A stretch of DNA of 49,806 nucleotides from Fimbriiglobus sp. (GTDB lineage Bacteria > Planctomycetota > Planctomycetia > Gemmatales > Gemmataceae), in the NCBI GenBank assembly GCA_035699305.1, contig DASSAT010000395.1, positions 1 through 49,806 on the forward strand, given 5' to 3'. The notes under the pieces are model-generated. The model was not told the origin of the DNA. It made no database searches and saw only the letters and a program-made list of their open reading frames with translations. How positions within the stretch are numbered: position 1 is the stretch's first letter; every line of letters starts with the position of its first letter. This document shows, in pieces, positions 20,719-49,806 of the stretch. Position numbers and translations under genes: made by a program.

Positions 20719-20725
20719 GCCTCAA

Positions 20726-20949: not shown

Positions 20950-20987
20950 ATTCACGCCACACCTACCACAACATCGAGGGCCGGCAC

Positions 20988-21587
20988 ATGCCGACGACAC
21001 TGGGCGAACTGGAAGAAGCGGCGAAGCAGGCGGCGGGGAACTGGCGGCGGTTCGAGTCGTTCGTCTGGTGGCGGGCACGTGACATCGAGGACGCTGACGG
21101 GCACGCCATCATCTACACGCACCACAGGGACAGCGGGCTGCTGGACGTGTCGAACGCCGCCGCCATCGCCAAGGCACTCGAACCCTTTACCGAAGGCGAC
21201 GACCCCGACGTGACGTTCGAGAGCCACAACCACTGGGCGGTCGGGCACATCGACGGGTTCTCCGTCCGGGTGTTCCGCAGCGGCAAGATCACCGAGGCGT
21301 TCAAGGTCTACCACGCCCTCGCCGAACGGATAGCGGACTACCCGGTCCTCGACGGGAGCGACTACTCCGAGCGGGAGTACGAAGCCACGCTGGAGAACAT
21401 CGGCCTCGCCGCTTGGCGGTTGAAGCGGGACTTCGCCCTGCCGGACGGCTGGGAGTCCGCCGTCTTCGACTGGCTGTGGCAGCACCGGGACCACGCCCTC
21501 GAAAACGTGGACGACCAAGGCGGATCGCCCGAAGAGTGCGACCTCGAAGCGGCTCTCGCCGCTCTGGGCTACCCACGGGTGGTATGA
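20988..21587 (+). CDS. Hypothetical protein (199 aa)
   Basis: GAGGG SD upstream. Acidic, normal composition. No family recognised. Confidence 0.6.
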   Translation: MPTTLGELEEAAKQAAGNWRRFESFVWWRARDIEDADGHAIIYTHHRDSGLLDVSNAAAIAKALEPFTEGDDPDVTFESHNHWAVGHIDGFSVRVFRSGKITEAFKVYHALAERIADYPVLDGSDYSEREYEATLENIGLAAWRLKRDFALPDGWESAVFDWLWQHRDHALENVDDQGGSPEECDLEAALAALGYPRVV

Positions 21588-21647
21588 CGCCCGGTGCAAT
21601 TTTTGGAACGGCGGTTGAGCGGCCCCGCCCGCCGCCGTCGCTCAGTC

Positions 21648-21661
21648 TGGCGGACACCGGC
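21648..21661 (+). promoter_or_regulatory. Motif copy M5
   Basis: TGGCGGACACCGGC, 42 nt upstream of ATG 21704. Confidence 0.7.
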
Positions 21662-21703
21662 GGGGACGCCGGCTGGACACGACCTCGACGACCGGAGGGC
21701 CGC

Positions 21704-22687
21704 ATGGCCGAGCAGCGACCGTCCAACGAGATCAACGACGTGGCCCCCACGTCGCTCAAGCACATGATCGGGCAGAAGGGCGTCATGGCGCAGGTCGCCG
21801 TCGCCCTCGACGCCGCCTTCGCCGACAACAAGAAGTTCGATTCGTCGCTCTTGGTCGGCCCGCCCGGCTGCGGGAAGAGTCAGACCGCCCGGATCATCGC
21901 CGCCGAGATGGCCACCGACCTGCACGAAGTCCTCGGCCAGAGCGTCGGGAACAGTGCCGACCTGAACGCCCTGTTGCTCTCGGCCAAGGACAAGGACGTG
22001 GTTCACATCGACGAGGCGCACGAGTTGGACAAGGAGTTCCAGACGGCGTTGTATCTGGCTATGGACCAGCGGCGGGTCGTCCTGCAAGCCCGGTCGAAGT
22101 CGGGGCCGCAGTCGATCCCGCTGGCCGACTTCAGCCTGCTGCTCTCGACGACGGACGAATACTGCCTGCTCCAGCCGCTCCGGGACCGGATGCGCCTGCT
22201 CCTCCGGTTCGAGTTCTACGCCGTCGAAGAACTGACGACGCTGCTCCACCAGCGGGCGAATGCGATCAGGTGGCCGATCCATGAGGGACTGCTTCCCCAG
22301 ATCGCCCGGCGGTCTCGGGGCACACCCCGGCTGGCGCTGCGGCTCCTCCAGTCCTGCCGCCGGGTGTGCCGCTCCGTGGGCGAGACCACGATCACCGGCG
22401 GACACCTGCGCCGGGCGTGTGAACTGGAGGGCATCGACGAGATCGGATTGGGGCCGGCCGAGCAGCAGTACCTCCGGGCACTCGCCGAAGGGGCCTCCCG
22501 GCTGAACGTGGTCGCCTCCCTACTCGGGCTCCCGGCGAGGACCGTGAGTCAGGTCGTCGAGCCCTTCCTGCTGCGGGTCGGGCTGATCGTGAAAGACGAC
22601 CAAGGACGGCGGGAACTGACCGCCAAGGGGCGGGGGCACCTGTCGCAATCCGGGCAACTTCGTGACCAGTTGGGGGAGCATTCGTGA
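21704..22687 (+). CDS. RuvB-like AAA+ ATPase (stand-alone paralogue, no ruvA nearby)
   Basis: Start trimmed to MAEQRPSNE, with GGAGGG SD. Walker A GPPGCGKS, Walker B VVHIDEAH, sensor RGTPRLALRLL, and a C-terminal winged-helix EPFLLRVGLIVKDDQGRRELT. Confidence 0.85.
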   Translation: MAEQRPSNEINDVAPTSLKHMIGQKGVMAQVAVALDAAFADNKKFDSSLLVGPPGCGKSQTARIIAAEMATDLHEVLGQSVGNSADLNALLLSAKDKDVVHIDEAHELDKEFQTALYLAMDQRRVVLQARSKSGPQSIPLADFSLLLSTTDEYCLLQPLRDRMRLLLRFEFYAVEELTTLLHQRANAIRWPIHEGLLPQIARRSRGTPRLALRLLQSCRRVCRSVGETTITGGHLRRACELEGIDEIGLGPAEQQYLRALAEGASRLNVVASLLGLPARTVSQVVEPFLLRVGLIVKDDQGRRELTAKGRGHLSQSGQLRDQLGEHS

Positions 22688-36973: not shown

Positions 36974-37127
36974 CGTGGGCCGGAACCTACGGCACGGCAG
37001 CATCCAACCACTGATGCCACTAAACGGGCCACCAACCCGTGGCCGGGACGAAGCCGGGAATGCCGTTTGCGGGAGGTAAAGGGGTTGAGGTCGTGATTCG
37101 CCCGTCACCCGAAGGGGGAGAGCTTCG

Positions 37128-37466
37128 ATGGCCCACCAAGAGCACCGCTCGTGCATCGACGCCTGCGTCCGGTGTGCGCAGGAGTGCGAGCACTGCGCCG
37201 ACGCCTGCCTGAGCGAGCCGGACGTGAAGGCGATGGCCGAGTGCGTCCGGCTGGACCGGGACTGCGCCCAGATCTGCTGGACGGCGGCGGCGTTCATGAG
37301 CCGGGGGTCGCACTTCATGAACGAGGTCTGCCGGGTGTGCGCCGAGGTCTGCGACGCCTGCGCCGCCGAGTGTGAGAAGCACGAGGCGGACCACTGCAAG
37401 CGGTGCGCCGAGGCGTGCCGCCGGTGCGCCGACGAGTGCCGGCGGATGGCCGGGGCGGCGGTCTGA
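37128..37466 (+). CDS. Cys-rich four-helix-bundle copper-binding protein (DUF326 family)
   Basis: 112 aa with repeated CxxxC/CxxC spacing (CIDACVRCAQECEHCADAC ... CAEVCDACAAECEKH...CKRCAEACRRCADEC). Confidence 0.8.
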   Translation: MAHQEHRSCIDACVRCAQECEHCADACLSEPDVKAMAECVRLDRDCAQICWTAAAFMSRGSHFMNEVCRVCAEVCDACAAECEKHEADHCKRCAEACRRCADECRRMAGAAV

Positions 37467-37484
37467 CCGGCCTCCGACCCGACC

Positions 37485-37525
37485 GGGGCGGGGCACGGCG
37501 GGCGACACCCCGTCCGCCCCGCCCC
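37485..37525 (+). terminator. GC-rich imperfect hairpin between DUF326 and czcD
   Basis: GGGGCGGGGCACGG ... CCGTCCGCCCCGCCCC. No U-tract. Confidence 0.25.
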
Positions 37526-37609
37526 TCGTCATGCCCCCGCCCCCCTCGCAGCAGTCCGGTTTCTTCAGGTCCACGGCTCCCACTGGCACCTGCCGGCGCA
37601 GGCGTCCCC

Positions 37610-38512
37610 ATGCCCCACGGCCACGACCACGACCACCGCTCGGGGCACCGCACCGGTAGCCGCTTCCGGCTACTGCTGACCCTCCTCTTGGCCGGCGGGT
37701 ACATGGTGGCCGAGGTCGTCGGCGGGCTGCTGACGAACTCGCTGGCCCTGCTCGCCGACGCCGGGCACATGCTCTCGGACGTGGCGGCGCTGGGGCTGAG
37801 CCTGTTCGCCGTCCGGGTCGCCGAACGCCCGCCCACACCCAAGCGGACCTACGGGTACTACCGGGCCGAGATTCTGGCGGCGCTGGTAAACGGGGCCACC
37901 CTCGTCGCCGTGTCGATCTACATCTTCGACGAGGCGTACCGGCGGGTGTGGAACCCGCCGGAGGTGCAAGGTGGGCTGATGCTGGGGATCGCCGCCGGGG
38001 GTTTGGCGGTGAACCTGCTGGGGCTGTGGATACTCGGGCGGGACCGGCGGGAGAGCCTGAACGTGCGGGGGGCGTGGCTGCACGTCCTGACCGACGCCCT
38101 CGGGAGCGTCGGGGCGATCACCGCCGCCGGGCTGATCTGGGCGTTCGGGTGGTACTGGGCCGACCCCGTGACCTCGGCGCTGATCGGGCTCTTGGTGGTG
38201 TACTCGTCGTGGCGGCTCTTGGCCGAGTCGGTGTCGGTCCTGATGGAGAGCGCCCCGAGGGGGATCGACGTGGATGAGGTCCGGGACGTGATCCGGGCGG
38301 TGCCGGGGGTTCTGTCCGTCCACGACCTGCACGTGTGGTCGATCACGACCGGGATGCCCTCCCTGTCGGCGCACGTCGTCGCCGAGGACGGCCAGCCGCA
38401 GGCGGCGCTGCTCAAGCGGTTACAGTCTGCCCTGCACGACCGGTTCGGGATCGACCACGTGACCATCCAGATCGAGCCGCCGGGCTTCGACGAGCCGGCC
38501 GCCCACGCCTGA
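37610..38512 (+). CDS. czcD: Cation diffusion facilitator (CzcD/ZitB-type) metal efflux transporter
   Basis: Start trimmed to MPHGHDHDHRSGH. LLADAGHMLSDV, YGYYRAEILAALVNG, HVLTDALGSV, and a C-terminal cytoplasmic domain with HDLHVWSITTG. Confidence 0.9.
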   Translation: MPHGHDHDHRSGHRTGSRFRLLLTLLLAGGYMVAEVVGGLLTNSLALLADAGHMLSDVAALGLSLFAVRVAERPPTPKRTYGYYRAEILAALVNGATLVAVSIYIFDEAYRRVWNPPEVQGGLMLGIAAGGLAVNLLGLWILGRDRRESLNVRGAWLHVLTDALGSVGAITAAGLIWAFGWYWADPVTSALIGLLVVYSSWRLLAESVSVLMESAPRGIDVDEVRDVIRAVPGVLSVHDLHVWSITTGMPSLSAHVVAEDGQPQAALLKRLQSALHDRFGIDHVTIQIEPPGFDEPAAHA

Positions 38513-38539
38513 CGCCCGCCACCGCCTGACGCCCGCCAC
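38506..38539 (+). repeat. Perfect 17-nt tandem duplication CGCCTGACGCCCGCCAC x2
   Basis: Units at 38506-38522 and 38523-38539. The first contains the czcD stop codon. Confidence 0.85.
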
Positions 38540-38553
38540 CCCGCACCCGGCAC

Positions 38554-39396
38554 TCACGTCCCGCACATGCCGTGGCACTCGCCGGTGGTCATCGGGTCGA
38601 GGGCGTTCGGCTGGAGGGCGGTGAAGTCCAGCACCGCCAGCGGGACGCATGAGCGGTGGACGAAAAGTTCCTGCCGGAACCCCCGGTTGCAGACGCTGTT
38701 CTCGTCCCGGAGAGCGTTGTCGATCTCGACCGCTCGTGCCCATCCCTCGGGGTCAATGGCCTTCAGGTTCATCCAACTCTGGTTGGTGCGAAACGGGCAG
38801 AACACGCACGACGACTTCGGGACATCGTGAGGCAGTTTCCCTCGCAGGTACTCCACGCAGTCCTTCCGGCTCCAGCCCATGTCGATCAGGGGCCAGTGGG
38901 GGACGGTGTGCTTGATCCCCTCGAACCGCTTCTTCGCCCGCTCAGCCCTCGCCGCCTCATCAGTGCTGATGCCGAAATACTGGTGGACGGTCACGTCCTT
39001 CGGGATGCGCTGCCTCGGCTTCAGCCCGAGCAATTCCCGGCGGATGGTCCGGTTCACCACCTCGATCTTGTACTCGGCGGTGCATTGCCGGCGGACCATC
39101 CCGACCTTCCCCTCGGGGCTCTTCGTGAACGCCGGGATCGAGACGAACCGCTGGCCGGTCGAGTTCCGGCCGTGGATCAGGTCGTCACCGAGCTTGCCGG
39201 CGGACCGGACCCAGATCTCGGGGGTGCCGAGGGACCGGAGGTGATCGAGGTGGCGGTAGACGGCGGACGGCTCCTCGCCGGTGTCTGCGAACACGGCGAG
39301 GTCGAACCGCAGGTCGGCGTCGGGCTCACGGGCCAGCAGGAACAGGGTGGTGCTTTGGACCCCCGCACCGAGGTTAAGGACGTGGAACTCTTTCAC
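38554..39396 (-). CDS. PP-loop ATPase of the PAPS-reductase-like (phage-type) family
   Basis: 280 aa. N-terminal PP-loop-like VLNLGAGVQSTTL. CVFCPF and a C-terminal Cys cluster ECHGMCG. Confidence 0.75.
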   Translation of the reverse strand: MKEFHVLNLGAGVQSTTLFLLAREPDADLRFDLAVFADTGEEPSAVYRHLDHLRSLGTPEIWVRSAGKLGDDLIHGRNSTGQRFVSIPAFTKSPEGKVGMVRRQCTAEYKIEVVNRTIRRELLGLKPRQRIPKDVTVHQYFGISTDEAARAERAKKRFEGIKHTVPHWPLIDMGWSRKDCVEYLRGKLPHDVPKSSCVFCPFRTNQSWMNLKAIDPEGWARAVEIDNALRDENSVCNRGFRQELFVHRSCVPLAVLDFTALQPNALDPMTTGECHGMCGT

Positions 39397-39416
39397 GCCC
39401 TATGTAGGGGCGTGGA

Positions 39417-39887
39417 TCACAATTCCCAGCGGTACTTTGGCTCGTGGTATACGTCTTGGCTCTTGCGGGGGCGTTTCGGGTTCCCCCACTCGTGCGACTC
39501 CAGCGGGCCGGTCGGGATGGCCCCGACCGCCCGGAGGGAGGCCCCGCCCTCCGACTCCAGCGTGTAGGTGATGACCTTCTCGTAGCCCATCAGCCGGGCG
39601 ATCTTGGCGCAGCGGGCGTAGAGGAACGAGCAGGCGTTCGGGGTGCCGTCCGTGCAGACCCGGAGCACCTCCAGCGTCCGGCCGTCGTCGAGGCGGCGGG
39701 AGATGGGCCGGCCGGCGACGGCGACCCCGACCAGCGTGCCGTCGTCGTTGGCAGCGCCCACGGCGAACTTGCCGCCGACCGTGGGCAGGTTGTGCCGGTG
39801 ATGCCGGGCGACGAACTCGTTGGCTTCTCGGAGATGGAGGGGGACCGCACGCACACGGTATGTAGTCCCGTGACACCCGTTCTTCAC
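39417..39887 (-). CDS. XF1762-like GNAT-fold protein
   Basis: 156 aa. ANEFVARHHRHNLPTVGGKFAVGA...LVGVAVAGRPISRRLDDGRTLEVLRVCTDGTPNACSFLY...ITYTLESEGGASLRA. This pattern matches my memory of the XF1762 family, often next to PAPS-reductase-like genes in prophages. Confidence 0.6.
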   Translation of the reverse strand: MKNGCHGTTYRVRAVPLHLREANEFVARHHRHNLPTVGGKFAVGAANDDGTLVGVAVAGRPISRRLDDGRTLEVLRVCTDGTPNACSFLYARCAKIARLMGYEKVITYTLESEGGASLRAVGAIPTGPLESHEWGNPKRPRKSQDVYHEPKYRWEL

Positions 39888-39894
39888 TCCCGAG

Positions 39895-42534
39895 TTAGAG
39901 CCTCGGGTCCACCGGCTCGCTCTCCAATGCGAGGACGCCGAAGACGCACTCGTGGACCCGCCGCAGCGGCTCCCGGCGTGCGAACCGCTCCAGCCCCTCG
40001 ACCCCGAGGGCGAACTCCCCGAGGGCCAGCGACCGCTTGTGCCCCAGCCCCCGGCTCCGCAGCCGGGAGAGGTTCTCCTCGGCGGTGTAGTCCGGGCCGT
40101 AGATGATCCGCAGGTACTCCCGCCCCCGGCACTTCACGGCCGGCTGGGCGATCCCCCGCCGGCCCCGGAGGATGAAGTCGAGCGGTTTGACCACCATGCC
40201 CTCGCCGCCCCGTCCAGTGAGGGCCGTCCACCACTCCGTCCCCTCGGCTTGGCTGGCCGGGTCGGTCACGTCCACGACCTTGTACGAGGTGGCCAGAAGC
40301 AGGTCGGGGTCCGCCCGGCAGACCGACGCCAGCGTCTCCATGTGCCACGGGTGGCCCTTGTCCGTGTGGGCCTTCCCCTCCGAGGCCAGCAGGTGGAACG
40401 GGGCGAGCTTCAGGTCCGTCAGCGAGTTCACCGGCCAGCAGTAGTGCCGGTACGCCGCCACGAACTGCCGGAGGCCCTGCTCCTTCCGGGAGCAATCCCC
40501 CGCCACCCGTTCGAGCTTGGCCCTCTCCTCGCCGGCGAGCCGGGTCGAGGCGGCGGCGAGCGAGGCGACGGCCCGAGGGAGTGCGGCCGTCCCGGCGGCT
40601 CCCACCGCTGCGTACTGGGTCTTGAGAAGTTCCTGCGCCTTGGCCGACCACGGCATCAGTTCACAGTCCAGACACACCCATGTCGTCCCCAGCGCCGCCC
40701 ACACATCCGCCGCCGTCAGCGCCGCCCGCACCCGGTCGAGGAACCGGACCTCCAACGCCGGATCGGTGAAGAACCGCCGGCCGGTGCGGGTGTAGACGAT
40801 GCCGGTCTCGCCCTCGGTGACGCCGAACCGCTCCCACGCCGCAGCCTCGTCCCGGCAGGCGACGACCACCGCCCTCGACCCCATGTGCTTCTCCTCGCAG
40901 ATCACCTGCGGGGCACCTTGGGAGCGGTAGTAGGCGAACGCCTCAGCCGGGTGCTCCAAGAGGCCCGGCTCGGTGCTCGTCTCACAGGGGGACATCGTGG
41001 GCGGCAGGTAGATCAGCCACCTCGGGTCGGCGGCGAACCGGCTCATCACCTCCAGCGCCGCCGTGGCGTGCGCCTCCCGGATGGTGACGGCCCCCCGCAG
41101 CCGGGTGGTGACGATCCGCTTGCCGAGCACGTCCTCGGCGTCGAGCACCTCGTCGTGGGCCTGCTGGGCTGTGAGCTTGGGGGCCTGCTCGCCTTCAGGC
41201 AGGAAGGGCCGGGCGGCTTCGCAGTACGTCCTCGCCGCCGGGACCGAGACGAACTCCTTCTCCGGGTAGCGGAGGGCGGTGAGCTTGCCGCCGAAGACGC
41301 AGCCGGTGTCGATGTTCACCGTCCGGTTGAGCCACTCCGCTTCCGGGACGGGCGTGTGGCCGTAGACGACCATCGCCGATCCCCGGTATTCCGCCGCCCA
41401 GTTGTACCGGACCGGCAGGCCGAACTCGTCCGTTCCCCCGGTCGTCTCGCCGTACAGGGCGAAGTCCCGCACCTTGCCCGACCCCCGGCCCTGCATCTCG
41501 GCCTTCATCCCGGCGTGGGCCACCACCAGATTGCCGCCGTCGAGGACGTAGTGGCTGACCAGCCCGTCGAGGAATTCGGACAGTTCCCGGCGGAACGGCT
41601 CCCGCACGTCGTCCGGCAAGGCGTCGAACTCGGCGAGGGTGTTGGCCAGCCCGTGCGTAACCTGCACGTCCTTGCCCCGGAGCTTCTTGAGCAGCTTCAT
41701 GTCGTGGTTGCCGGGGACGCACAGTGCCGACCCGGACCGGACCATGTTCCGCACCAGCCGCACCGTGTCGAGCACCCGTGGCCCCCGGTCCACCAGATCG
41801 CCGACGAAGACGGCCTTGCGGCCCTCGGGGTGGGCGTAGGCCCGGTCCCCCCAGACGGAGGTTTCCCCTTCTAGCGATGTCGTCCCGTACCCGAGCAGTT
41901 GGAGCAGGGCCTCAAGCTCGTCGAAGCAACCGTGAATGTCGCCGATGATGTCGAACGGGCCGTGGTCGGCGGTCCGGTCGTTCCACAGCGGCACCCGCTC
42001 GACCACCGCCGCCTCGACCGCCTCCGGCGTCTCCAGCACGAACACGTGGCGAAAGCCCTCCCGCTGGAGGCCCTTGAGGGACCGCCGCAGTTGCGACCGC
42101 TGGTTGCGGACGACGTGGGGGCCGAACGAGCGGTCCGGGCGGGACCGGTTCCGCTCCTGACACACCACTTCGGGCAGGTTCAGGACGACGGCGACGGGGA
42201 GGCAGTGGTACTTGCGGGCCAAGGCGACCAGCGGGGCACGGGCCTCGGGCTGGACGTTGGTGGCGTCCACCACGGTCAGCCGCCCGAGGGCGAGCCGCTG
42301 GGCGGCGACGAAGTGCAGCAGGGCGAACGCCTCGCCCGTCACCGACTGGTCGTTCTCGTCGTCCGATACCATCGCCCGGCAGGCGTCCGACGACAGGATC
42401 TCGGTCGGCTTGAAGTGCCGGCGGGCGAACGTGCTCTTGCCCGACCCGCTCGGGCCGATCAGGACGACGAGGGAGAGGGTAGGAATCTTGATCTGTGACA
42501 TCTGCCGCCGAGCCGTGTGGGGCTGTCTCCTCAT
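39895..42534 (-). CDS. pnkp: Polynucleotide kinase-phosphatase/ligase Pnkp (RNA repair)
   Basis: P-loop kinase VVLIGPSGSGKSTF. Metallophosphatase GDIHGC, GDLVDRGP, GNHD. Ligase/adenylyltransferase lysine motif CEEKHMGSR. ATG 42534 overlaps the HEPN stop (ATGA). ATG 42501 (MSQIKIPTLSLVV) is an alternative start. Confidence 0.9.
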   Translation of the reverse strand: MRRQPHTARRQMSQIKIPTLSLVVLIGPSGSGKSTFARRHFKPTEILSSDACRAMVSDDENDQSVTGEAFALLHFVAAQRLALGRLTVVDATNVQPEARAPLVALARKYHCLPVAVVLNLPEVVCQERNRSRPDRSFGPHVVRNQRSQLRRSLKGLQREGFRHVFVLETPEAVEAAVVERVPLWNDRTADHGPFDIIGDIHGCFDELEALLQLLGYGTTSLEGETSVWGDRAYAHPEGRKAVFVGDLVDRGPRVLDTVRLVRNMVRSGSALCVPGNHDMKLLKKLRGKDVQVTHGLANTLAEFDALPDDVREPFRRELSEFLDGLVSHYVLDGGNLVVAHAGMKAEMQGRGSGKVRDFALYGETTGGTDEFGLPVRYNWAAEYRGSAMVVYGHTPVPEAEWLNRTVNIDTGCVFGGKLTALRYPEKEFVSVPAARTYCEAARPFLPEGEQAPKLTAQQAHDEVLDAEDVLGKRIVTTRLRGAVTIREAHATAALEVMSRFAADPRWLIYLPPTMSPCETSTEPGLLEHPAEAFAYYRSQGAPQVICEEKHMGSRAVVVACRDEAAAWERFGVTEGETGIVYTRTGRRFFTDPALEVRFLDRVRAALTAADVWAALGTTWVCLDCELMPWSAKAQELLKTQYAAVGAAGTAALPRAVASLAAASTRLAGEERAKLERVAGDCSRKEQGLRQFVAAYRHYCWPVNSLTDLKLAPFHLLASEGKAHTDKGHPWHMETLASVCRADPDLLLATSYKVVDVTDPASQAEGTEWWTALTGRGGEGMVVKPLDFILRGRRGIAQPAVKCRGREYLRIIYGPDYTAEENLSRLRSRGLGHKRSLALGEFALGVEGLERFARREPLRRVHECVFGVLALESEPVDPRL

Positions 42535-44006
42535 TCACCGTCCACGCCACTGAGGACGGACCCTCCCTCGTTCATTGTCTGCCAGACGTGCCTCTCTTGT
42601 CGCAGGCGGTGGTGCGATCTGATCGCTGACCGCAGGGTGTCCTCGGGTACGCCGGCCTTCACCAAGAGGACAACACGGAGCATCAGTGACAACTTCTGGA
42701 TCGCCCAGTGCAGATCCGCCCCTTGGAGGATCTTGCGGTCTTGTCCCGTGGAGTAGTGCGTGTAATGGTTGCGGGTATCGACGACGCCTTTGATGAAGAC
42801 CTCCCTGTCGGTGCAGAACAGTCGCCACGTGTCGTCCCCCAATTCGGAGAGCAGGCCGAGTAGCTTGCGCCGCAAGGTGCGGCTGTTGGCGTGCCCCAGA
42901 CTGTTCCTGATCGACTCGATCAACTCGCCGGGTAGTCCGGCGGGTAGCGATGCGAGCATCCGGTCCCGGACATCCCTGTACGTGTCCTTGGGGACAATCG
43001 CAGCGTTCGGGCCTTCGCCCGACAAGACCTCGGCCGCATGTACCAGAGGCAGGAACCGAAGCTCGATGAACTCGGACGGCCTGCGTTCGCTGGACAGCAG
43101 AATGCTCCGGGCACCCTTCACCGCTTCGGTCGCACCCAGCCAGTTCTCAACGATCTGGCGGAACCCCGTCTCGATTTGCTGGTATCGGACCACGAAGTCC
43201 ATCGCCGTGTACGGTCCGACCTCGGCGGTGTGCCGTGGGTAGTAGAGCAAGGCTCCGGCACGGCTCGGGCCGTCCTTGTAGAGAGTCAGCCGCCGTGACA
43301 GCAGGCTCCCTCCGTAACAGACCGCAAGCAGGCCGACGATCTCGGACGCTTGGCTGACGAACCAGTTGATCGGCTTCGGCTCGGCCGGGGCGATCTCCAT
43401 GTACGTGTGGTGCTCAATCGTGGGGCTGGTCCCGAGCGGGTGTCCCGGTGGCCGGACGGCGTGGATCAGACGCAGGGCCGAGCTTGTCGCTGAGATCTCG
43501 ATGCTGATGTTCGTAGGCCGGGTGTAGTCGAGCCGGACCGTCTCGCCCTCGCCCCCCATCTCGGCCCGAAAGGGCGACTCGCCGAGCCAGTCTTCGAGGT
43601 ACGGGATCTCGACCCGGCACTTGGCGAACGTCTCGTCGGGCGACGACAGATGGACGCCTTCGAGCAGCCAACCACAGTGCAGTTCGGCCGAACGAATGGC
43701 CGTTGTCGTGCCCGGCCGAACGGCGAGCGTCCGCACGTCAGGCGTCCATTTCGTGTAAAACGAACGCAGCACCGTGACCGGTACGGCCTCCAGCGTTTCC
43801 CCGAGGATGACGGGGAACTCAGTCGATGTCGGGGTGGCACTGAACGGGGACTCGACGTGGGCTTCGTTGAGGCCCTCGTAAAGCGAAAGGGTCAAGTCCC
43901 CCTCCGTGTAGCGGAGATCGCCCGCAATCCGCTGGTTGGTGATGGGCAACCACCAGTGGCCTCGGATCGTGAAGTGCTCGCTCTGCGAATGCGCCTTCCT
44001 GCTCAT
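42531..44006 (-). CDS. ApeA-like HEPN-domain protein (predicted RNase) nested between hen1 and pnkp
   Basis: 491 aa after trimming to MSRKAHSQSEHF (ATG 44006 overlaps the hen1 TGA as ATGA). The N-terminus FTIRGHWWLPITNQRIAGDLRYTEGDLTLSLYEGL resembles ApeA_NTD1. The C-terminal VVDTRNHYTHY carries an Rx4H HEPN motif. Lower GC than its neighbours. Confidence 0.6.
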   Translation of the reverse strand: MSRKAHSQSEHFTIRGHWWLPITNQRIAGDLRYTEGDLTLSLYEGLNEAHVESPFSATPTSTEFPVILGETLEAVPVTVLRSFYTKWTPDVRTLAVRPGTTTAIRSAELHCGWLLEGVHLSSPDETFAKCRVEIPYLEDWLGESPFRAEMGGEGETVRLDYTRPTNISIEISATSSALRLIHAVRPPGHPLGTSPTIEHHTYMEIAPAEPKPINWFVSQASEIVGLLAVCYGGSLLSRRLTLYKDGPSRAGALLYYPRHTAEVGPYTAMDFVVRYQQIETGFRQIVENWLGATEAVKGARSILLSSERRPSEFIELRFLPLVHAAEVLSGEGPNAAIVPKDTYRDVRDRMLASLPAGLPGELIESIRNSLGHANSRTLRRKLLGLLSELGDDTWRLFCTDREVFIKGVVDTRNHYTHYSTGQDRKILQGADLHWAIQKLSLMLRVVLLVKAGVPEDTLRSAIRSHHRLRQERHVWQTMNEGGSVLSGVDGE

Positions 44007-45412
44007 CTGTCTTCTCTCGAAAAAACTCCCATTTGGGTCGGCGACCCGTGCTCGGGGTGCTCCGGCCCGACCGGCAGGAACCGCACCGTGTAACCGAACC
44101 GGGAAGCGATCCCGGTCGCCCAGTCCCGGAACTCCCGGCGGGTCCACTCGAACCGGTGGTCCGGGTGCCGGAGCCGGCCCGCCGGGAGGGTCTCCCACGT
44201 CACGTTGAACTCCCGGTTCGGGGTCGTCAGCACGACCGACCGGGGCCGGGCGAACTCGAACAGCACCCGCTCGAACGCCGACAGCCGGGGCGGGTCGAGG
44301 TGCTCGACGACCTCCACCACCGAGGCGGCGTCGAACCCCGCCAGCCGCTTGTCCCGGTACATGAGCGAGCCGTGGACGAGCTTCACCCGGTCGGCTTGGC
44401 GGTCGGGCAGGTGGTCGAGCTTCAGCCGGCGGGAGGCGACCTCCAGCGTGCGGACCGACACGTCCAGCCCGACGACTTCCCCGAACTGACGGTCCTTGAG
44501 GAGTTCCCGGACCAGCTTGCCCTCCCCGCACCCGAGGTCGAGCACCCGGTTGGCCCCGCTCGCCCGCAGCGCCGCCACCACCGCCCCGAGCCGCTGCTCG
44601 TTGAGGCTGAGCGGCTTCTCCAAGGTCGTCTCGGCCTGTTCTCGGGGCCGCTCCCCGTCCTCCTCGGCCTCGGCCGGCTCCTCCTCCTGCACGAGCCGGG
44701 CGAGGGCCATCCGGTACAGGCTCGGCTGGAACCGCAGGTAGCGGCGGGCGATCTCGTCCTTCTCTGGGTGGGTGGCCAGCCAGCCCTCGCCCTTCGCCAG
44801 CAGCTTCTCGATCTCGTCCTCGCCGACGAAGTAGTGCTTGCGGCCGTCGAAGACCGGGACCAGCACGTACAGGTGCGTCAGCAGATCGGCCAGCGTGCTC
44901 GACTTCCGCACGGCCACGGAGAAGTACGGGCTCTCACCCCACTCGGGGAACCGCTCGTCGAGCGGGTGGCGAACGGCCTCGACCTCGTACCCGAGGGGCT
45001 CGAACATGGCCCGTAGGACGGCCTCACCGCCCCGCACCGGGAGCACGTCGAGTCGGGCTTCGAGGGGGATCGGCGAGGCGACCAACTCGGGGCGGTCCTT
45101 ACACCGCCCTTGCATTGCCGAGCCGAGGACTTGGCTGATCGCCACGCTCAGGAAGGACGAGGCGGCGTAGGGCCGGTCATTGACGTACTGGGCGAGCAGG
45201 AAGCTCTGGTCGGGGTTCCGGCCCCGGACCATGCCCACGGCGTCCACGTCGAGCAGCAGGCAGGCCGAGCACCGGTCGTCCCCGGCCTCGGGGTAGTAGA
45301 CGTGGGCCTTGCCGAAGCTCAGGTCGAACGACTGGAACTTGTCCGGGTGCTTGTGGAGCAGGAAGCCCAGATCGGTCGCCGGCCGGTGGGTAGTCGTGAT
45401 CGTCAGCAGCAT
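44003..45412 (-). CDS. hen1: Bacterial Hen1 RNA 3'-terminal ribose 2'-O-methyltransferase
   Basis: 469 aa. MLLTITTTHRPATDLGFLLHKHPDKFQSF is the typical bacterial Hen1 N-terminus. The C-terminal SAM motif is VLDLGCGEGKLVREL. Confidence 0.85.
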   Translation of the reverse strand: MLLTITTTHRPATDLGFLLHKHPDKFQSFDLSFGKAHVYYPEAGDDRCSACLLLDVDAVGMVRGRNPDQSFLLAQYVNDRPYAASSFLSVAISQVLGSAMQGRCKDRPELVASPIPLEARLDVLPVRGGEAVLRAMFEPLGYEVEAVRHPLDERFPEWGESPYFSVAVRKSSTLADLLTHLYVLVPVFDGRKHYFVGEDEIEKLLAKGEGWLATHPEKDEIARRYLRFQPSLYRMALARLVQEEEPAEAEEDGERPREQAETTLEKPLSLNEQRLGAVVAALRASGANRVLDLGCGEGKLVRELLKDRQFGEVVGLDVSVRTLEVASRRLKLDHLPDRQADRVKLVHGSLMYRDKRLAGFDAASVVEVVEHLDPPRLSAFERVLFEFARPRSVVLTTPNREFNVTWETLPAGRLRHPDHRFEWTRREFRDWATGIASRFGYTVRFLPVGPEHPEHGSPTQMGVFSREDR

Positions 45413-45678
45413 CCTTCGAGCCTCGGAGCGGCACGGACCCGCTGCCGCCTACGCATTCCGTGACTGACACGGTTTAGGTCGCCCCGGTTCACCCTACCAT
45501 CTGACCTTCTCTCTCCGAGACAGTCCGACTCGTCTTCAGCATGAGCGGCAGGCCCACTCGGAGATTCCTGATCGCCGTAGGACACCTCGACTCGATACAA
45601 CCGGCCGGGAGAAGGCGGTCGCAGGCGGTTGTGACCCGGCACCCCTTACCGTCATCTAAAGGTGCCCAAGTGTCTCAT

Positions 45679-45731
45679 GTGGCCGATAGGAGTTCGAGAA
45701 CAGACACGTGGCCGATAAGGTGGCCGATAAG
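45679..45731 (+). repeat. Three direct 12-nt repeats GTGGCCGATA(A/G)G
   Basis: Copies at 45679-45690, 45708-45719 and 45720-45731. The last two are in perfect tandem. Confidence 0.85.
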
Positions 45732-45760
45732 GGTGAATTGAGTTGCCGTAAGTCCTTTAT

Positions 45761-45789
45761 TTGCAACACTTGCGACTTGGCTTGAGTAT
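45761..45789 (+). promoter_or_regulatory. Sigma70-like promoter candidate in the AT-rich core of the intergenic region
   Basis: TTGCAA (45761-45766), 17-nt spacer, GAGTAT (45784-45789). It points at the hairpin at 45810. Confidence 0.3.
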
Positions 45790-45809
45790 CCCCGGCGCCT
45801 CCACTATCT

Positions 45810-45847
45810 GACACGCCCTGCGGAAACGCAGGGCGTGTCTCTTTTTG
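45810..45847 (+). terminator. Strong intrinsic terminator with no upstream plus-strand CDS
   Basis: 13-bp perfect stem GACACGCCCTGCG / CGCAGGGCGTGTC with GAAA loop, followed by TCTTTTTGG. Confidence 0.65.
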
Positions 45848-45895
45848 GACTTACGTCGAAACACCAATCCCGCAAGGGCTTACGACCGGGCCTTC

Positions 45896-45941
45896 GTGTC
45901 AGATAACGTGTCAGATAAGCCCGCCCGTCGTGTCAGATAAG
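45896..45941 (+). repeat. Three direct repeats GTGTCAGATAA(C/G), plus one inverted copy at 45805-45814
   Basis: Copies at 45896-45906, 45908-45919 and 45930-45941. They share GTG..(A/C)GATAAG with the 45679-45731 repeats. Confidence 0.85.
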
Positions 45942-46076
45942 CCGGTCCAGACCACCCTCCTGGTCGGGACAACTGTCCCGACTTCCCCGCCCCCTGACAC
46001 CGGCTGTCCCCCGCTTGTCGGCCGGCCGTTCGTGGCCCGGCCGAAGCGTTCTACACTGCCGACCGGGGGATACCGT

Positions 46077-47819
46077 ATGAGCCGTAACCGTGACCTGAAG
46101 CCGGACGCCCAGGGCCGCTACCGCCCGTACCTCGGGTGGAAGGCGGACATCGCCATCGGCGACGACGGAACGCCCCGGTACTCGAACCAGCGGCAGCACC
46201 GCTTCAACCTCGGTACGGACAAGCGGGAGGCCGAGCGGCGGCTGGCCCGGCTACGGGAGTTGTGGGACGAGAACTGCCGGGCCAACGGCGAGGAGGTCTG
46301 GACGGCGCACGCCCTCTCCTACGCCGAGCGGATCGCCCGTGGCGAGTACCGGATCGAGGTTCCCCCGCTGACCGAGACCGACGGGTACGACGACCCGCCC
46401 GCCGGGTACGCTGAGGTCATCCAGTTCGAGCGGGACTTGTACCCGTCCCTCGACATCGTGCCCGCCGACCCAGTTCAGTACGAGGCGTCGAAGGCCATGA
46501 GCGAGCGGGTCGTGGCCGACGAAATGCGCCGCTTGGAAGCCGACCTGCGGGAGTGGGGTGCGCTCCCGTCCAAGCGGTCGTTGCCCGAGAAGTTGATCTC
46601 CGGGACGTTCCACGAAGCCCTGGACGCCTACGCCGAGGACATCCGCACGACGGCCAAGCGGCCCGGCACGGACGTGCTGACCCCTTACGGGCGGCTGCGC
46701 CTGGCCCACGCCACCCGGCTCAAGCGGCAGCACCCCGACGTGCCGCTCCACTCGCTCACCTACGACGCCTGCCAGAAGTTGATCGCCGTCTGGCGGAACC
46801 GGCCGAAGGGGGTGCGGACCGACCGGCCGACGAGCTACGACAACGCCCGTCACCACATCGGCGAACTGATGCGGTTCTTCCGGTGGCTGGACGCCACCGA
46901 CAAGTACCAGTGGTCGATGCCCCGAGGGCTGGAGCGGGTGAGCCGGAAGATTCCCAAGACCGCCGACGAGAAGCGGCTGAGTGCGATCACCGTCGAGACG
47001 TACTCCGTCGAGGAACTGGCGGTGCTGAACCGGCACGTCCTGCCGGTGGAGCGGTTCCTGCTGTACGTCGGGCTGAACTGTGCGATGGGTGCCGCCGAAC
47101 TCGGGCGGCTCCGGGTCGATGACGTGCTGCGGAACCACCGGCACGAGTACGCCGAACGGCTGCACTTTGAATCGACCGGGGCGGACAACTTCATCCGCTT
47201 CCTCCGGCCGAAGACCGGCGTCTTCGGGGAGTGGTGGCTGTGGCAGCCGACCGTCCAGATGCTCGATTGGGCGATCCGCCGGGCGGGCCGGATCGGGGCG
47301 AAGGTGCTGTGTGTCACCGAGGAGGGGCACCCCTGGTATAACGAGGGGTCCACCAACTCGCAGGCCACGTTCGCAAACGTGTGGGGGCGGCTGCTGGGGC
47401 GGGTGCGTAAGTCCCACCCGGACTTCCGCAGGTTGCCGTTCGGCAGCCTGCGGGACACCCTGCCTGACCTCATGCGGCACCGCTTCGACGACGAGTTGGC
47501 GAGCCTGTGCCTCGCCCACGGCTCCCCGTTCCGGCAGGACAACCTGCTCGAATGCTACGGGAACAAGCCGTTCGGCCGGTTGCACAAGGCGTTGAGAAAG
47601 ATGGAGGCGGTCATGGCCCCGGTGTTCGAGGCAGCCCCGGCCGACCCGACCGAGGAGCGGAAGACGTACCTGCCCATCGTCACCCTGGACCGCATCAAGG
47701 CGATGTTGGGGGAGGACAAACGGCCTGGCGAAATCGCCAAAGAGTGCGGCGTCTCGACCATGACCGTTTACCGGGTGCGGAAGGACATCAACGGCGGTGC
47801 CGGGTCAGGCTCGGACTGA
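46077..47819 (+). CDS. Integrase-like protein (tyrosine-recombinase-like layout) with C-terminal HTH
   Basis: Start trimmed to MSRNRDLK, with GGGGGA SD. The layout resembles a core-binding plus catalytic domain (RFLRPKTG..., SLRDT, LCLAHG, LLECYGN). I could not find the first catalytic Arg. The C-terminus GEIAKECGVSTMTVYRVRKD is an HTH. Confidence 0.45.
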   Translation: MSRNRDLKPDAQGRYRPYLGWKADIAIGDDGTPRYSNQRQHRFNLGTDKREAERRLARLRELWDENCRANGEEVWTAHALSYAERIARGEYRIEVPPLTETDGYDDPPAGYAEVIQFERDLYPSLDIVPADPVQYEASKAMSERVVADEMRRLEADLREWGALPSKRSLPEKLISGTFHEALDAYAEDIRTTAKRPGTDVLTPYGRLRLAHATRLKRQHPDVPLHSLTYDACQKLIAVWRNRPKGVRTDRPTSYDNARHHIGELMRFFRWLDATDKYQWSMPRGLERVSRKIPKTADEKRLSAITVETYSVEELAVLNRHVLPVERFLLYVGLNCAMGAAELGRLRVDDVLRNHRHEYAERLHFESTGADNFIRFLRPKTGVFGEWWLWQPTVQMLDWAIRRAGRIGAKVLCVTEEGHPWYNEGSTNSQATFANVWGRLLGRVRKSHPDFRRLPFGSLRDTLPDLMRHRFDDELASLCLAHGSPFRQDNLLECYGNKPFGRLHKALRKMEAVMAPVFEAAPADPTEERKTYLPIVTLDRIKAMLGEDKRPGEIAKECGVSTMTVYRVRKDINGGAGSGSD

Positions 47820-47830
47820 CACCGCCCGGA

Positions 47831-47856
47831 CGGTTCGGAGTCCGAACCGTTCTCTG
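47831..47856 (+). terminator. Hairpin after the integrase-like gene
   Basis: CGGTTCGG-AGT-CCGAACCG followed by TTCTCT. Confidence 0.4.
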
Positions 47857-47870
47857 TCGGCAGGAACCGC

Positions 47871-48113
47871 ATGGATGACCAGCATCAGATCACCATCACC
47901 GACGCCGAAGTCCTTGCCGTCAGCAGCGGGGAGGACGACGCCACAGGCCAGCCGGTCGTCGTCCTCACCCTGCGGCCGATCACCGGCTCGGGCTGGGGGC
48001 ACGTCAACTACTCGCTGCACCCCGACAACGCCCGCTCGCTGCTCGACCGACTGAGCCGGGTGCTGGCTTCCTCGTCGGCGACAATCGGAGACGCCGACGG
48101 GTGCCGACCGTGA
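47871..48113 (+). CDS. Hypothetical protein (80 aa)
   Basis: AGGAA SD upstream. Normal composition. Confidence 0.4.
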   Translation: MDDQHQITITDAEVLAVSSGEDDATGQPVVVLTLRPITGSGWGHVNYSLHPDNARSLLDRLSRVLASSSATIGDADGCRP

Positions 48114-48186
48114 CTCATCCTGCGGTCGGCCTCGATTCGTTTTGTCGGTAAACTCGTGGGAACAAAGACCGTTCGAGGCGACGCCG

Positions 48187-49740
48187 ATGGCTGGCAAGCT
48201 GCCGCTGAATCTGAACGACCTGCTGCGCCAGCGGACCGTCGAGGGCGACCGCATCGAGTACAAGGCGGGCTGGAACCCGGACGCCGTGGTGCGGACACTC
48301 TGCGCCTTCGCCAACGACTTCGAGAACCTGGGCGGCGGGTACGTCGTCATCGGCCAGGACTGCGTGGACGGCAAACCCGTCTTCCCGCCGGTCGGCCTGA
48401 AGGACAACCAACTCGACCCGATCCAGCGAGAACTCCTCGGCTACTGCAATCAGATTCAGCCGACCTACTTCCCGAACCTGAGCGTCGAGAAGTACGAGGG
48501 CAAGAACCTGCTCGTGCTGTGGGCACCGGGCGGGCTGAACCGCCCGTACAAGGCCCCCCGAGCCGTCACCGCCAAGACGAAGGAGTACCACTACTTCATC
48601 CGCCGGTTCTCTAGCACGGTCGAAGTGAAGTCGAACAGCGAGGACGAACAGGAGCTTCTGCGGCTGACGGCGACCGTGCCGTTCGACGACCGCCAATGCC
48701 GCACCGCTGACGTGGATGACCTGCGCCCTGGGCTGCTTCAGGCGTTCTTGAAAGAAGTCGGCAGCGAACTCCACAAGCGGGCGAGCAAGATGCCGCTGGT
48801 GGAGTTGGGTCGGCAGATGAACATCGTGGACGGGGCCGACGAGTTCGTGAAGCCCCGCAACGTCGGCGTGCTGTTCTTCCACGACGAGCCGAGGACGTTC
48901 ATTCCCGGTGCGCAGATCGACGTGGTGATCTTCCCGGACGGTCCCGGCGGCGACGTTCTCATCGAGAAGGAGTTCCACGGCCCGCTGCACGAGCAGGTGC
49001 GGGACGCCTTGCGGTACATCGAGAGCAGTGTGATCCGGGAGAAGGTCATCAAGCACAAGGACCGGGCCAAGGCGACCCGGCTGTTCAACTACCCCTTTCC
49101 GGCCGTCGAAGAAGCGGTGGTGAACGCCGTCTACCACCGCAGTTACGAGCAGCGGGAGCCGGTGGAAGTGCGGGTGAACCCGGACGGGATCGAGATCGTC
49201 AGTTACCCCGGCCCGGACGCCTCGATCCGCATCGAGGCGTTGAACGCCGACAAGATCGTGGCCCGGCGTTACCGCAACCGCCGCATCGGGGAGTTCCTGA
49301 AGGAACTGGAACTGACCGAGGGCCGCTGCACCGGCATCCCCAAGATGCGTGCGTCGATGAAGAAGAACGGTTCACGCCTGCCCCGGTTCTCGACGGACGA
49401 GGGGCGGACGTACTTCCTGGTGGAGTTGCCGGTTCACGCTCAGTTGCCAGGGGTGAAGGCACAAGACGAGGCCCAAGATCAGGCCCAAGATCAGGCCCAT
49501 GTTCTAAACGACACCGAGCGGCGGTTACTGGAAGCGTTGGAAAAGGGGCCACTGGCAACGGCACAGATTGCGGCAGCCCTGGGACATTCGAGCCGCAGCG
49601 GTGCGATCAAGCTCGCCCTCACCCATCTCGAATCCCTCGGCCTGATCGAACTGACGATCCCTGACAAGCCACGAAGTCGAAACCAGATGCGGCGGCTGAC
49701 TAGCAGTGGAAAGGCGTGGCTTGCCCAGCAATCGAACTGA
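48187..49740 (+). CDS. AlbA_2 (Schlafen-like) DNA-binding plus ATPase-like plus winged-helix protein (family often annotated as RecG-like transcriptional regulator)
   Basis: Start trimmed to MAGKLPLNLNDLLRQRTVEGDRIEYKAGWNPDAVVRTLCAFANDFENLGGGYVVIG. The middle has AVEEAVVNAVYHRSY. The C-terminus is wHTH-like (LLEALEKGPLATAQIAAALG). Confidence 0.75.
   Translation: MAGKLPLNLNDLLRQRTVEGDRIEYKAGWNPDAVVRTLCAFANDFENLGGGYVVIGQDCVDGKPVFPPVGLKDNQLDPIQRELLGYCNQIQPTYFPNLSVEKYEGKNLLVLWAPGGLNRPYKAPRAVTAKTKEYHYFIRRFSSTVEVKSNSEDEQELLRLTATVPFDDRQCRTADVDDLRPGLLQAFLKEVGSELHKRASKMPLVELGRQMNIVDGADEFVKPRNVGVLFFHDEPRTFIPGAQIDVVIFPDGPGGDVLIEKEFHGPLHEQVRDALRYIESSVIREKVIKHKDRAKATRLFNYPFPAVEEAVVNAVYHRSYEQREPVEVRVNPDGIEIVSYPGPDASIRIEALNADKIVARRYRNRRIGEFLKELELTEGRCTGIPKMRASMKKNGSRLPRFSTDEGRTYFLVELPVHAQLPGVKAQDEAQDQAQDQAHVLNDTERRLLEALEKGPLATAQIAAALGHSSRSGAIKLALTHLESLGLIELTIPDKPRSRNQMRRLTSSGKAWLAQQSN
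49470..49499 (+). repeat. In-frame 12-nt tandem repeat GGCCCAAGATCA x2.5
   Basis: Encodes the AQDQAQDQA linker in the AlbA_2-type protein. Confidence 0.8.
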
Positions 49741-49806
49741 CGGGAGCGACGTTCACCCCGCTCTCTGCACGACCACGAACCACGCCTTCGGCCCGCCCTC
49801 GCTGAA

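Follow-up and report, generated by a model that had tools for sequence, protein, structure and literature searches.

An ApeA-family HEPN nuclease gene nested between hen1 and pnkp in an RNA repair operon of Planctomycetota

Introduction

The bacterial Pnkp/Hen1 RNA repair cassette was reportedly described by Chan, Zhou, and Huang in 2009, and ApeA is said to be a single-gene anti-phage defense system known from Gao et al. in 2020. To our knowledge, and in the papers open to searching, neither the natural substrates of Pnkp/Hen1 nor the nucleases that it opposes in cells have been identified. Here, we analyze a 49.8-kb stretch of DNA with 67% GC (Fimbriiglobus sp., phylum Planctomycetota, contig DASSAT010000395.1; hereafter the window, and all positions are those of this whole stretch) in which an apeA gene lies between hen1 and pnkp, the latter two being on the same strand and in the same cluster.

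HEPN RNases are metal independent and leave 2′,3′-cyclic-phosphate and 5′-OH ends. The HEPN domain of ApeA cuts tRNA anticodon loops upon binding of a small ligand in an interdomain pocket, and the E. coli and Pseudomonas homologues were found to form a ring-shaped oligomer with ligand-activated anticodon-loop cleavage (bioRxiv 10.64898/2026.01.26.701840). On the repair side, complexes of the Pnkp/Hen1 type heal ribotoxin-cut tRNA in vitro, 2′-O-methylate the nucleotide at the break, and ligate, so that the tRNA resists re-cleavage; Hen1 methylates only once a break exists (PMC4411300).

Results

The gene between hen1 and pnkp belongs to the ApeA family

Five co-directional open reading frames (ORFs) run along the minus strand from 45412 to 38554 in the ORF list, as an initial annotation made from the sequence alone had read them (Table 1). 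Profile searches upheld all five names that it had given, namely Hen1, an ApeA-type HEPN RNase, Pnkp, an XF1762-family protein, and, with a Pfam match below threshold, a PP-loop protein. The ORF between hen1 and pnkp matched ApeA_NTD1 (PF18862) over residues 14 to 289 with an E value of 9e-27 (94.6 bits against a cutoff of 25.5), and its C-terminal domain matched HEPN_Apea (PF18739, E = 2e-18), the best PADLOC model being PDC-S58 (3e-48). The catalytic motif RNHYTH is intact at residues 412 to 417, and 28 members of the clade all retain R412, N413, and H417. With the two Pfam matches and the intact motif, this ORF is the ApeA-family HEPN protein that it had been taken for, and similarity to HEPN RNases is plainly present.

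The AlphaFold model of ApeA (predicted local distance difference test [pLDDT], 86.9) comprises a beta-rich domain (residues 1 to 255) and a helical domain (residues 275 to 475). ApeA gave no meaningful match in the PDB, either by sequence profile or by Foldseek with the confident model, so that support for its HEPN fold comes from Pfam and from the helical C-terminal domain of the model. In a protein search, the members of the clade to which the window's ApeA belongs were ∼490 amino acids (aa) long and 34 to 85% identical to it, and the clade is only about 20 to 28% identical to most ApeA relatives. One clade member, P0038 (397 aa, from a 1.8-kb ENA contig), carries ApeA_NTD1 followed by GNAT acetyltransferase domains and not by HEPN, an architecture that could reflect either a true domain swap or an error of gene calling.

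Hen1 corresponds to TIGR04074 (E = 2e-214, 712 bits against a cutoff of 340) and to Hen1_L (PF12623, 2.5e-113). Both its N-terminal Pnkp-ligase-activating domain and its C-terminal 2′-O-methyltransferase domain were found, with 4dqz and 3jwh as their respective relatives in the PDB. Pnkp corresponds to TIGR04075 (E = 0, 1404 bits against a cutoff of 750), and its kinase, metallophosphatase, and adenylyltransferase/ligase domains matched Pfam AAA_33, Metallophos, and PNKP_ligase. The PDB relatives of these domains are 4gp6 (kinase), 4j6o (phosphatase), and 3ty5 and 4drf (ligase), with per-domain E values of 1e-70 to 5e-173. All four catalytic domains of Pnkp/Hen1 are full length, each matching solved structures, and from homology at the equivalog level we infer that the two proteins would heal, methylate, and seal cut tRNA. 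Between the window and its relative L166, the ratios of nonsynonymous to synonymous substitution rates (dN/dS) were 0.22 for hen1, 0.15 for apeA, and 0.16 for pnkp; purifying selection acts on each of them.

Direct reading of the junction confirmed that the hen1 stop and the apeA start have an ATGA in common. The initial annotation had read a second such overlap, at 42531 to 42534, and had called the RNase translationally coupled between hen1 and pnkp. The apeA stop does overlap an in-frame ATG there, and the longest pnkp ORF would begin at 42534, but the pnkp start is most likely the ATG at 42501, giving 868 aa, because the Pnkp of the closest relative also has 868 aa, all Pnkp relatives open with M-x-x-x-IP-x-LS 28 to 60 nucleotides (nt) past the apeA stop, and the TIGR04075 alignment begins at residue 14 of the longest ORF. 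This makes the second ATGA probably coincidental and leaves the coupling standing on the hen1 side, where the ATGA is conserved (see below). Similarly, the gaps first given, 7 nt between pnkp and the XF1762 gene and 20 nt between the latter and the PP-loop gene, hold for the longest ORFs, but since XF1762 relatives are 144 aa long, the start of that gene is probably the GTG at 39854, and the first gap would then measure 40 nt.

Table 1 Features of the hen1-apeA-pnkp region, in positions of the window
Feature	Position	Strand	Remarks
hen1	44003..45412	-	3′-terminal RNA ribose 2′-O-methyltransferase; cassette gene 1
apeA	42531..44006	-	491 aa, ApeA family; cassette gene 2, in the hen1-pnkp slot
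HEPN motif R-N-H-Y-T-H (R412...H417)	42756..42773	-	From translation; conservation across relatives
hen1 stop/apeA start ATGA overlap	44003..44006	-	Read in the sequence
pnkp	39895..42501	-	Polynucleotide 5′-kinase/2′,3′-phosphatase/RNA ligase, 868 aa; cassette gene 3 (last)
XF1762-family Mom-like GNAT-fold gene	39417..39854	-	Alternative start 39887; outside the conserved cassette
PAPS-reductase/SspD-DndC-like PP-loop gene	38554..39396	-	Neighbor, outside the conserved cassette
Synteny breakpoint between cassette and XF1762/PP-loop module	39882..39895	.	Nucleotide comparison with L173
Intergenic region upstream of hen1, presumed promoter site	45413..45929	.	Motifs and hairpin
Divergent integrase-like gene	45930..47819	+	629 aa, C-terminal helix-turn-helix (HTH); PHROG 1 match

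hen1, apeA, and pnkp recur together in Planctomycetota

We then looked into gene contexts, both those of the clade relatives and those of ApeA loci taken from GTDB genomes and from metagenomes. The order hen1-apeA-pnkp was found in 11 loci, the window and 10 other planctomycete contigs, and the named sources are metagenome-assembled genomes of Planctomycetaceae and Planctomycetia; the window itself resembles DNA from a relative of Gemmataceae. The ApeA proteins of the 10 other loci are 85% (P0002 contig), 76% (L166), 65% (L167), 56% (L168 and L086), 54% (L169), 52% (L007), 51% (L182), 50% (L008), and 48% (L181) identical to that of the window. The neighborhood survey that the initial annotation had called for thus revealed that the insertion of apeA between hen1 and pnkp is not peculiar to this strain but recurs in 10 further loci; the co-occurrence of the XF1762 and PP-loop genes with the cassette, the other part of that survey, was not seen in any further cassette locus with readable sequence downstream.

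The overlap between the hen1 stop and the apeA start was present in all 10 junctions read (the window and nine loci with ApeA identities of 48 to 76%), as ATGA or, in L168, as GTGA. A lone 4-nt start/stop overlap is commonplace; its recurrence across all junctions read is not, and we conclude from the comparison that the hen1/apeA overlap is not coincidental and that apeA is translationally coupled to hen1. The Hen1 and Pnkp proteins of the cassettes each group together, apart from those of Nostoc, Leptospira, Deinococcus, and Rhodococcus (four other phyla). Their subclades mostly match those of the ApeA tree, in which the window/L166/L168 and L008/L182 subgroups return. ApeA diverges faster (48 to 56% identity) than do Hen1 (67 to 72%) and Pnkp (72 to 75%). 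None of ∼150 distant ApeA loci (<30% identity) had hen1 or pnkp nearby, and no fourth gene is shared, the genes downstream of pnkp being all different in L007, L008, L181, L182, and the P0002 contig. The recurrent gene order, the shared overlap, the grouping of Hen1 and Pnkp, and the purifying selection together indicate that hen1-apeA-pnkp (45412 to 39895) is one co-inherited three-gene unit conserved in Planctomycetota.

In other bacteria, hen1 is followed by an abutting or overlapping pnkp on five plasmids, from Nostoc, Leptospira, Rhodococcus (two plasmids), and Asticcacaulis, and this agrees with the initial statement that the two genes are immediate neighbors in the canonical cassette. 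On two Deinococcus plasmids, the slot between them is filled by two RlaP nucleotidyltransferase genes whose starts and stops overlap; RlaP is a recognized RNA-ligase-associated family (PMC12776372). Given the RlaP genes of Deinococcus, the slot is a place for accessories to RNA repair, and its planctomycete occupant is an RNase. The predicted RNase between hen1 and pnkp had been presented as a departure from the canon: the RNase stands, but an occupied slot is already found in Deinococcus. The slot of D. ficus also holds an unknown gene of 237 aa, the hen1-pnkp locus of D. gobiensis is followed by an AbiEi/AbiEii pair, and in Asticcacaulis two genes annotated as nucleotidyltransferases come after pnkp (Deinococcus/Asticcacaulis loci, L178:6374-8816, L218:7362-9067, and L219:9925-11714).

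Proposed function of the cassette

We propose that hen1-apeA-pnkp forms a self-limiting, recoverable tRNA cleavage module, and we give this reading a probability of about one-half, because ApeA has been published as a ligand-gated tRNA nuclease and the ends left by HEPN enzymes are the substrate of Pnkp/Hen1. A small molecule derived from infection or stress would trigger ApeA, which would then cut tRNAs, and translation would stop. As expected of a HEPN enzyme, the cuts would leave 2′,3′-cyclic-phosphate and 5′-OH ends. The Pnkp/Hen1 complex, made from the same message, with hen1 and apeA translationally coupled, would heal both ends, 2′-O-methylate the nucleotide at the break, and ligate, so that the tRNAs could no longer be cut at that site. 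A suicidal abortive-infection nuclease would in this way become a self-limiting and recoverable arrest, and leaky activity would be buffered. We infer, then, that the repair enzymes act on the products of ApeA itself and that the outcome is a reversible arrest.

An extension of the self-limiting module would be an RNA-level restriction-modification with memory. Since Hen1 methylates only at a break, each repaired ApeA cut would be marked, leaving a permanent 2′-O-methyl "self" mark; resident tRNAs would grow immune, unmarked phage tRNAs and fresh transcripts would stay cleavable, and self would be told from nonself. We regard this extension as very unlikely.

The nuclease and repair activities might also serve cut-and-rejoin RNA processing or marking and not defense. 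By analogy with Las1-Grc3 and with Ire1-ligase splicing, a specific RNA would be cleaved and rejoined with a 2′-O-methyl or minus a nucleotide, which would change its function. The partnership of a HEPN nuclease and a polynucleotide kinase is reported to be established in eukaryotic rRNA processing (PMC5900568), and Hen1 needs a break (PMC4411300), so that a dedicated nuclease would supply a programmed substrate. The patchy, mobile-element-linked distribution of the cassette and its frequent decay (see below) are nevertheless atypical of housekeeping, the faster evolution of ApeA than of its partners (48 to 56% versus 67 to 75% identity) is what defense proteins show, and Rfam and tRNA scans of the window detected no associated RNA gene. 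We consider such processing highly improbable.

The cassette decays to a lone nuclease and can be re-created

ApeAs from cassettes occur throughout the clade tree, with standalone ApeAs interspersed among them. In Gimesia (L006, identical to L001), the apeA gene is preceded at ∼9915 to 9998 by 28 residues left over from the Hen1 C terminus (54% identity, E = 9e-8), which end at the same ATGA, and we therefore read this lone apeA as a decayed cassette. The Gimesia gene lies within an element that also carries ArdC-like, resolvase, and NADAR genes. In L167, hen1 is reduced to its last 49 codons and pnkp to ∼100 codons on either side of an intact apeA, and in L168, pnkp is fragmented, with a DUF5677 gene between apeA and the pnkp fragments. 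Right after the apeA stop of L168 (L168:11519-11662), we found a 148-nt, 84%-identical copy of the 3′ end of hen1 (L168:9830-9978) with a 4-nt frameshifting gap. Because direct hen1 repeats bracket it, we conclude that apeA entered the hen1...pnkp operon of L168 by recombination within hen1. As two of the loci taken for standalone keep remnants of hen1, the comparison indicates that the cassette is ancestral to the clade, that recombination can re-create it, and that decay has repeatedly left the nuclease on its own.

Several points weigh against the self-limiting module. ApeA provides abortive infection as a single protein and works alone in E. coli (bioRxiv 10.64898/2026.01.26.701840). Within the clade, seven ApeAs lack flanking hen1 or pnkp (the Gimesia protein of L006, L087 to L090, L180, and the more distant L002), and some cassettes have decayed with apeA left intact, from which it follows that ApeA neither needs the repair genes nor kills without them. 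The third-codon-position GC content (GC3) of apeA is 0.82, versus 0.93 for the flanking genes, and no ApeA-Hen1 or ApeA-Pnkp fusion was present in the best 150 of 3419 family representatives. Repair running at the same time as cleavage would also appear self-defeating for an abortive-infection nuclease, unless the two differ in timing or stoichiometry. Finally, the link between ApeA and repair is drawn here from sequence comparison, the co-transcription of the cassette from gene spacing, and the ApeA of this clade is presumably a ligand-gated tRNA anticodon-loop nuclease by likeness to its family.

We rank co-location without mechanistic coupling as the main rival. In that case, apeA would be an autonomous abortive-infection gene that hitch-hikes in a hen1-pnkp operon repairing the damage of foreign ribotoxins, and the gain would be co-regulation and co-transfer, as in a miniature defense island. 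Hitch-hiking would account for a protein that functions alone, for standalone relatives and decayed cassettes, for the distinct GC3, for the lack of fusions among the representatives just mentioned, and for the variable, mobile-element-rich contexts of the cassettes, which have integrase, ArdC, transposase, and BREX genes nearby. It sits poorly with the same slot and the same 4-nt overlap in 10 of 10 junctions, down to 48% identity, with the co-inheritance of Hen1, Pnkp, and ApeA, and with the re-insertion of apeA into the hen1 operon in L168. Moreover, the ∼150 distant ApeA loci have no hen1 or pnkp nearby, RNA repair accessories are the only other genes seen in the slot, to the exclusion of any other defense gene type, and the end chemistry of the nuclease exactly fits the substrate of the repair enzymes. 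On these grounds, we hold hitch-hiking to be a serious but unlikely explanation.

Decay also bears on a safety-catch or addiction arrangement, in which Pnkp/Hen1 would act as an enzymatic "antitoxin" that undoes basal ApeA cleavage. The repair enzymes would then permit a trigger-happy nuclease or stabilize the cassette on mobile elements, and recovery from infection would not be the point. The tight coupling of a nuclease surrounded by repair genes and the association of the cassette with integrase and mobile-element genes would suit this arrangement, and enzymatic antitoxins of HEPN toxins reportedly have a precedent in MNT-HEPN (PMC13000451). Yet apeA is intact where hen1 and pnkp are deleted or fragmented (L167, L006, and possibly L168), which implies that it is not constitutively toxic, and the characterized ApeAs are inactive until a ligand is bound (bioRxiv 10.64898/2026.01.26.701840). 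We find a safety catch distinctly unlikely.

The XF1762 and PP-loop genes look like a separate module

The XF1762 protein matched NF045478 (7e-55) and PHROG 1384, "Mom-like DNA modification protein" (1e-32). In the model (pLDDT, 82), the protein adopts a GNAT fold; many GNATs match, and the top TM-score went to phage Mu Mom (8bv8; TMq 0.69, E = 4e-6). The PP-loop protein matched PHROG 424, PAPS reductase (1e-32), and PADLOC SspD (9e-13); Pfam PAPS_reduct was below threshold (E = 0.23), and NCBIfam gave no match. PADLOC detected no Dnd/Ssp partner (SspA/B/C or DndA/B/D/E) among seven window proteins, the five of the operon and two encoded upstream of hen1. The initial annotation had surmised that these two genes add a further step of RNA modification, an idea that we abandon in view of the Mom-like GNAT and PAPS-reductase/SspD-like assignments.

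Both genes are absent from every other cassette locus with readable downstream sequence and from 165 ApeA loci. Conversely, three loci (L173 to L175) hold the XF1762 gene, a gene of 361 aa, and the PP-loop gene without hen1, apeA, or pnkp, at the same chromosomal hotspot as the window; this shared hotspot adjoins conserved LamG-kinase and extracytoplasmic function (ECF)-sigma genes. Nucleotide homology to L173 (89 to 91%) covers 38554 to 39881 and ends where the XF1762 gene starts, 14 nt short of the pnkp stop, and upstream, where the window has pnkp, L173 has a histidine kinase gene. The P0002 contig carries its 85%-identical cassette at the same hotspot without the XF1762 and PP-loop genes. 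Because the module occurs without the cassette and the cassette without the module, we regard the "five-gene operon" as a juxtaposition, even with read-through; the trailing genes look like a separate nucleic-acid modification module of the mobile-element type that merely abuts the cassette.

The five-gene system of the initial annotation, in which the GNAT-like and PP-loop proteins would modify the RNA further after cut, repair, and methylation, is therefore not borne out, with both genes missing from other cassettes and present without a cassette in L173 to L175. The genes are co-directional with gaps of 20 to 40 nt and no terminator detected, and GNAT and PP-loop enzymes are generally known to include modifiers of the tRNA anticodon. 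Set against this are the gene contents just described, with a 361-aa gene between the two genes in L173 to L175 and the homology of the window ending at the XF1762 start, the best matches to the phage Mu Mom DNA modification family and to PAPS-reductase/SspD, and the frequency of XF1762 in viral contigs, where the PP-loop gene was nearby in 1 of 31. Comparative genomics largely refutes the five-gene system, to which we give next to no credence.

XF1762/Mom-like genes were found in 31 viral contigs from IMG/VR (L187 to L217), with 41 to 64% identity, so that phages carry this family. An obligate pairing of the XF1762 and PP-loop genes was ruled out, the PP-loop gene being adjacent in only 1 of these 31 viral loci and having other partners in Gemmata. 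There (Gemmata obscuriglobus CP042911, L170:1-10843), a 79%-identical PP-loop orthologue is preceded by HTH and DUF6900 genes and not by XF1762, and it adjoins DISARM-like helicase, DUF1998(MZB), and PLD genes. The PP-loop protein has 6021 relatives, with two copies in Fimbriiglobus ruber and in another genome. The XF1762 protein has 3362 metagenome relatives, and the best 120 of the 3362 are 68 to 89% identical to it, an unusually high conservation.

Genomic context of the cassette

The integrase-like gene divergent from hen1 has a weak match to PHROG 1, integrase (1.8e-7), and the L182 cassette locus carries a 40%-identical homologue (L182:12830-13456, minus strand), located three genes beyond pnkp. 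Its presence there is a hint that the cassette moves with an integrative element, the integrase-like gene being a possible mobility gene of the island. No att-like direct repeats bounding an island of 37000 to 49806 were found beyond chance-level matches, and the viral contigs contained neither an ApeA of the close clade nor the cassette. Between hen1 and the integrase-like gene, we found three GTGGCCGATAA/G motifs (45679 to 45734), three direct copies and one inverted copy of GTGTCAGATAA (45805 to 45948) that overlap the GTG annotated as start codon of the integrase-like ORF, and, on the plus strand, a perfect 13-bp hairpin followed by a T-run (45810 to 45850). These are possibly binding sites for a recombinase or regulator, or an end of the element. 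A scan revealed no sigma-70-like promoter and no internal terminator, a result that says little in a planctomycete; Rfam and tRNA scans of the whole window gave no RNA gene.

The integrase-like gene is followed at 48142 to 49740 (plus strand) by a gene for a 532-aa protein with Schlafen/AlbA_2, HATPase_c_4, and a Fic-like C-terminal winged HTH. It matches pAgo-associated models of PADLOC (1.6e-20) and may be another defense or regulatory gene of the island. Elsewhere in the window, a BREX-like cluster on the minus strand (1481 to 10800) encodes a BrxA-domain protein (9742 to 10800), a BrxC-like protein of 1307 aa (5521 to 9444), and a PglX/Eco57I-type methylase (1481 to 6088), the last in a stretch of lower GC (55 to 56% at 2 to 4 kb). 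An anti-restriction-like gene of the ArdC-N/zincin "PolyVal" type and a RuvB-like AAA gene are found at 19379 to 22687 on the plus strand. The same ArdC/RuvB families lie directly upstream of hen1 in L181 (L181:463-4122), and the Gimesia locus has the ArdC-like gene only (L001:2420-3343); these genes are possibly the signature of a mobile element that recurs in planctomycetes. Two genes at 37128 to 38512 (plus strand), flanked by the PP-loop gene on one side and by the conserved kinase/sigma block on the other, are probably a metal-handling pair: by Pfam, the first encodes a DUF326 protein, which is rich in Cys and whose gene contains three 45-nt repeats, and the second, which overlaps the first, encodes a cation-efflux (CDF) transporter.

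Discussion

We found no account of the hen1-apeA-pnkp nesting in the searchable literature, a search outside of which the survey of Burroughs and Aravind (2016, NAR 44:8525) falls. Within that literature, and for the nesting of the three genes, the arrangement is as undescribed as a defense system as the initial annotation had supposed. The ApeA preprint (bioRxiv 10.64898/2026.01.26.701840) analyzed gene neighborhoods, treats ApeA as a single gene, and makes no mention of Hen1 or Pnkp, and the 2013 HEPN survey draws no link between ApeA and RNA repair.

With its three genes, the cassette offers a concrete candidate nuclease-substrate pair for Pnkp/Hen1 and a candidate for the nuclease partner missing in vivo. 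If our proposal is true, a bacterial abortive-infection nuclease can carry its own undo-and-lock function, which would turn cell suicide into a reversible arrest. RNA repair would then join the parts list of host immunity and would no longer belong to the phage side only, as with T4 Pnk/Rnl1. The evolution of a module can also be followed in the comparative data, from recombination into hen1 to frequent decay to a lone nuclease.

Of the known systems, two resemble individual neighbors of the cassette. The XF1762 protein shares with phage Mu Mom a GNAT fold nearest to that of Mom and a match to the Mom-like PHROG, but it is shorter (144 aa versus ∼230 aa). The PP-loop protein resembles DndC/SspD through its PHROG PAPS-reductase and PADLOC SspD matches, and the partner genes of Dnd/Ssp were not found among the seven window proteins scanned.

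The cassette itself combines features of several systems. Like the ApeA single-gene system, it has ApeA_NTD1 and HEPN_Apea in a protein of similar length with an intact Rx4H motif; the described ApeA is a lone gene, whereas here apeA is nested in an RNA repair operon at 11 loci, with a start/stop overlap at the 10 junctions read. Like the Pnkp/Hen1 cassettes of C. thermocellum and Anabaena, it encodes full-length equivalogs with four catalytic domains, in the order hen1 then pnkp. In the canonical cassette, however, the two genes adjoin or overlap, and a foreign ribotoxin is presumed to do the damage, whereas a nuclease gene separates them here. The hen1-RlaP-RlaP-pnkp loci of Deinococcus likewise have accessory genes between hen1 and pnkp, their starts and stops overlapping, but the inserts are nucleotidyltransferase repair accessories and not an RNase. 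In the conflict between PrrC and phage T4 Pnk/Rnl1, an anticodon-loop cut of the HEPN type is countered by a kinase-phosphatase and a ligase, as we propose for the cassette; there, nuclease and repair belong to opposing genomes, whereas here one operon encodes both and repair would add a protective methyl. The Las1-Grc3 pre-rRNA complex likewise couples a HEPN endonuclease, functionally and physically, to a 5′-OH kinase that acts on its product. That complex is eukaryotic and housekeeping, lacks a ligase and a methyltransferase, and has products that are degraded and not rejoined. All of its parts belong to known families, and what is new is the conserved nesting of a defense nuclease inside a repair operon.

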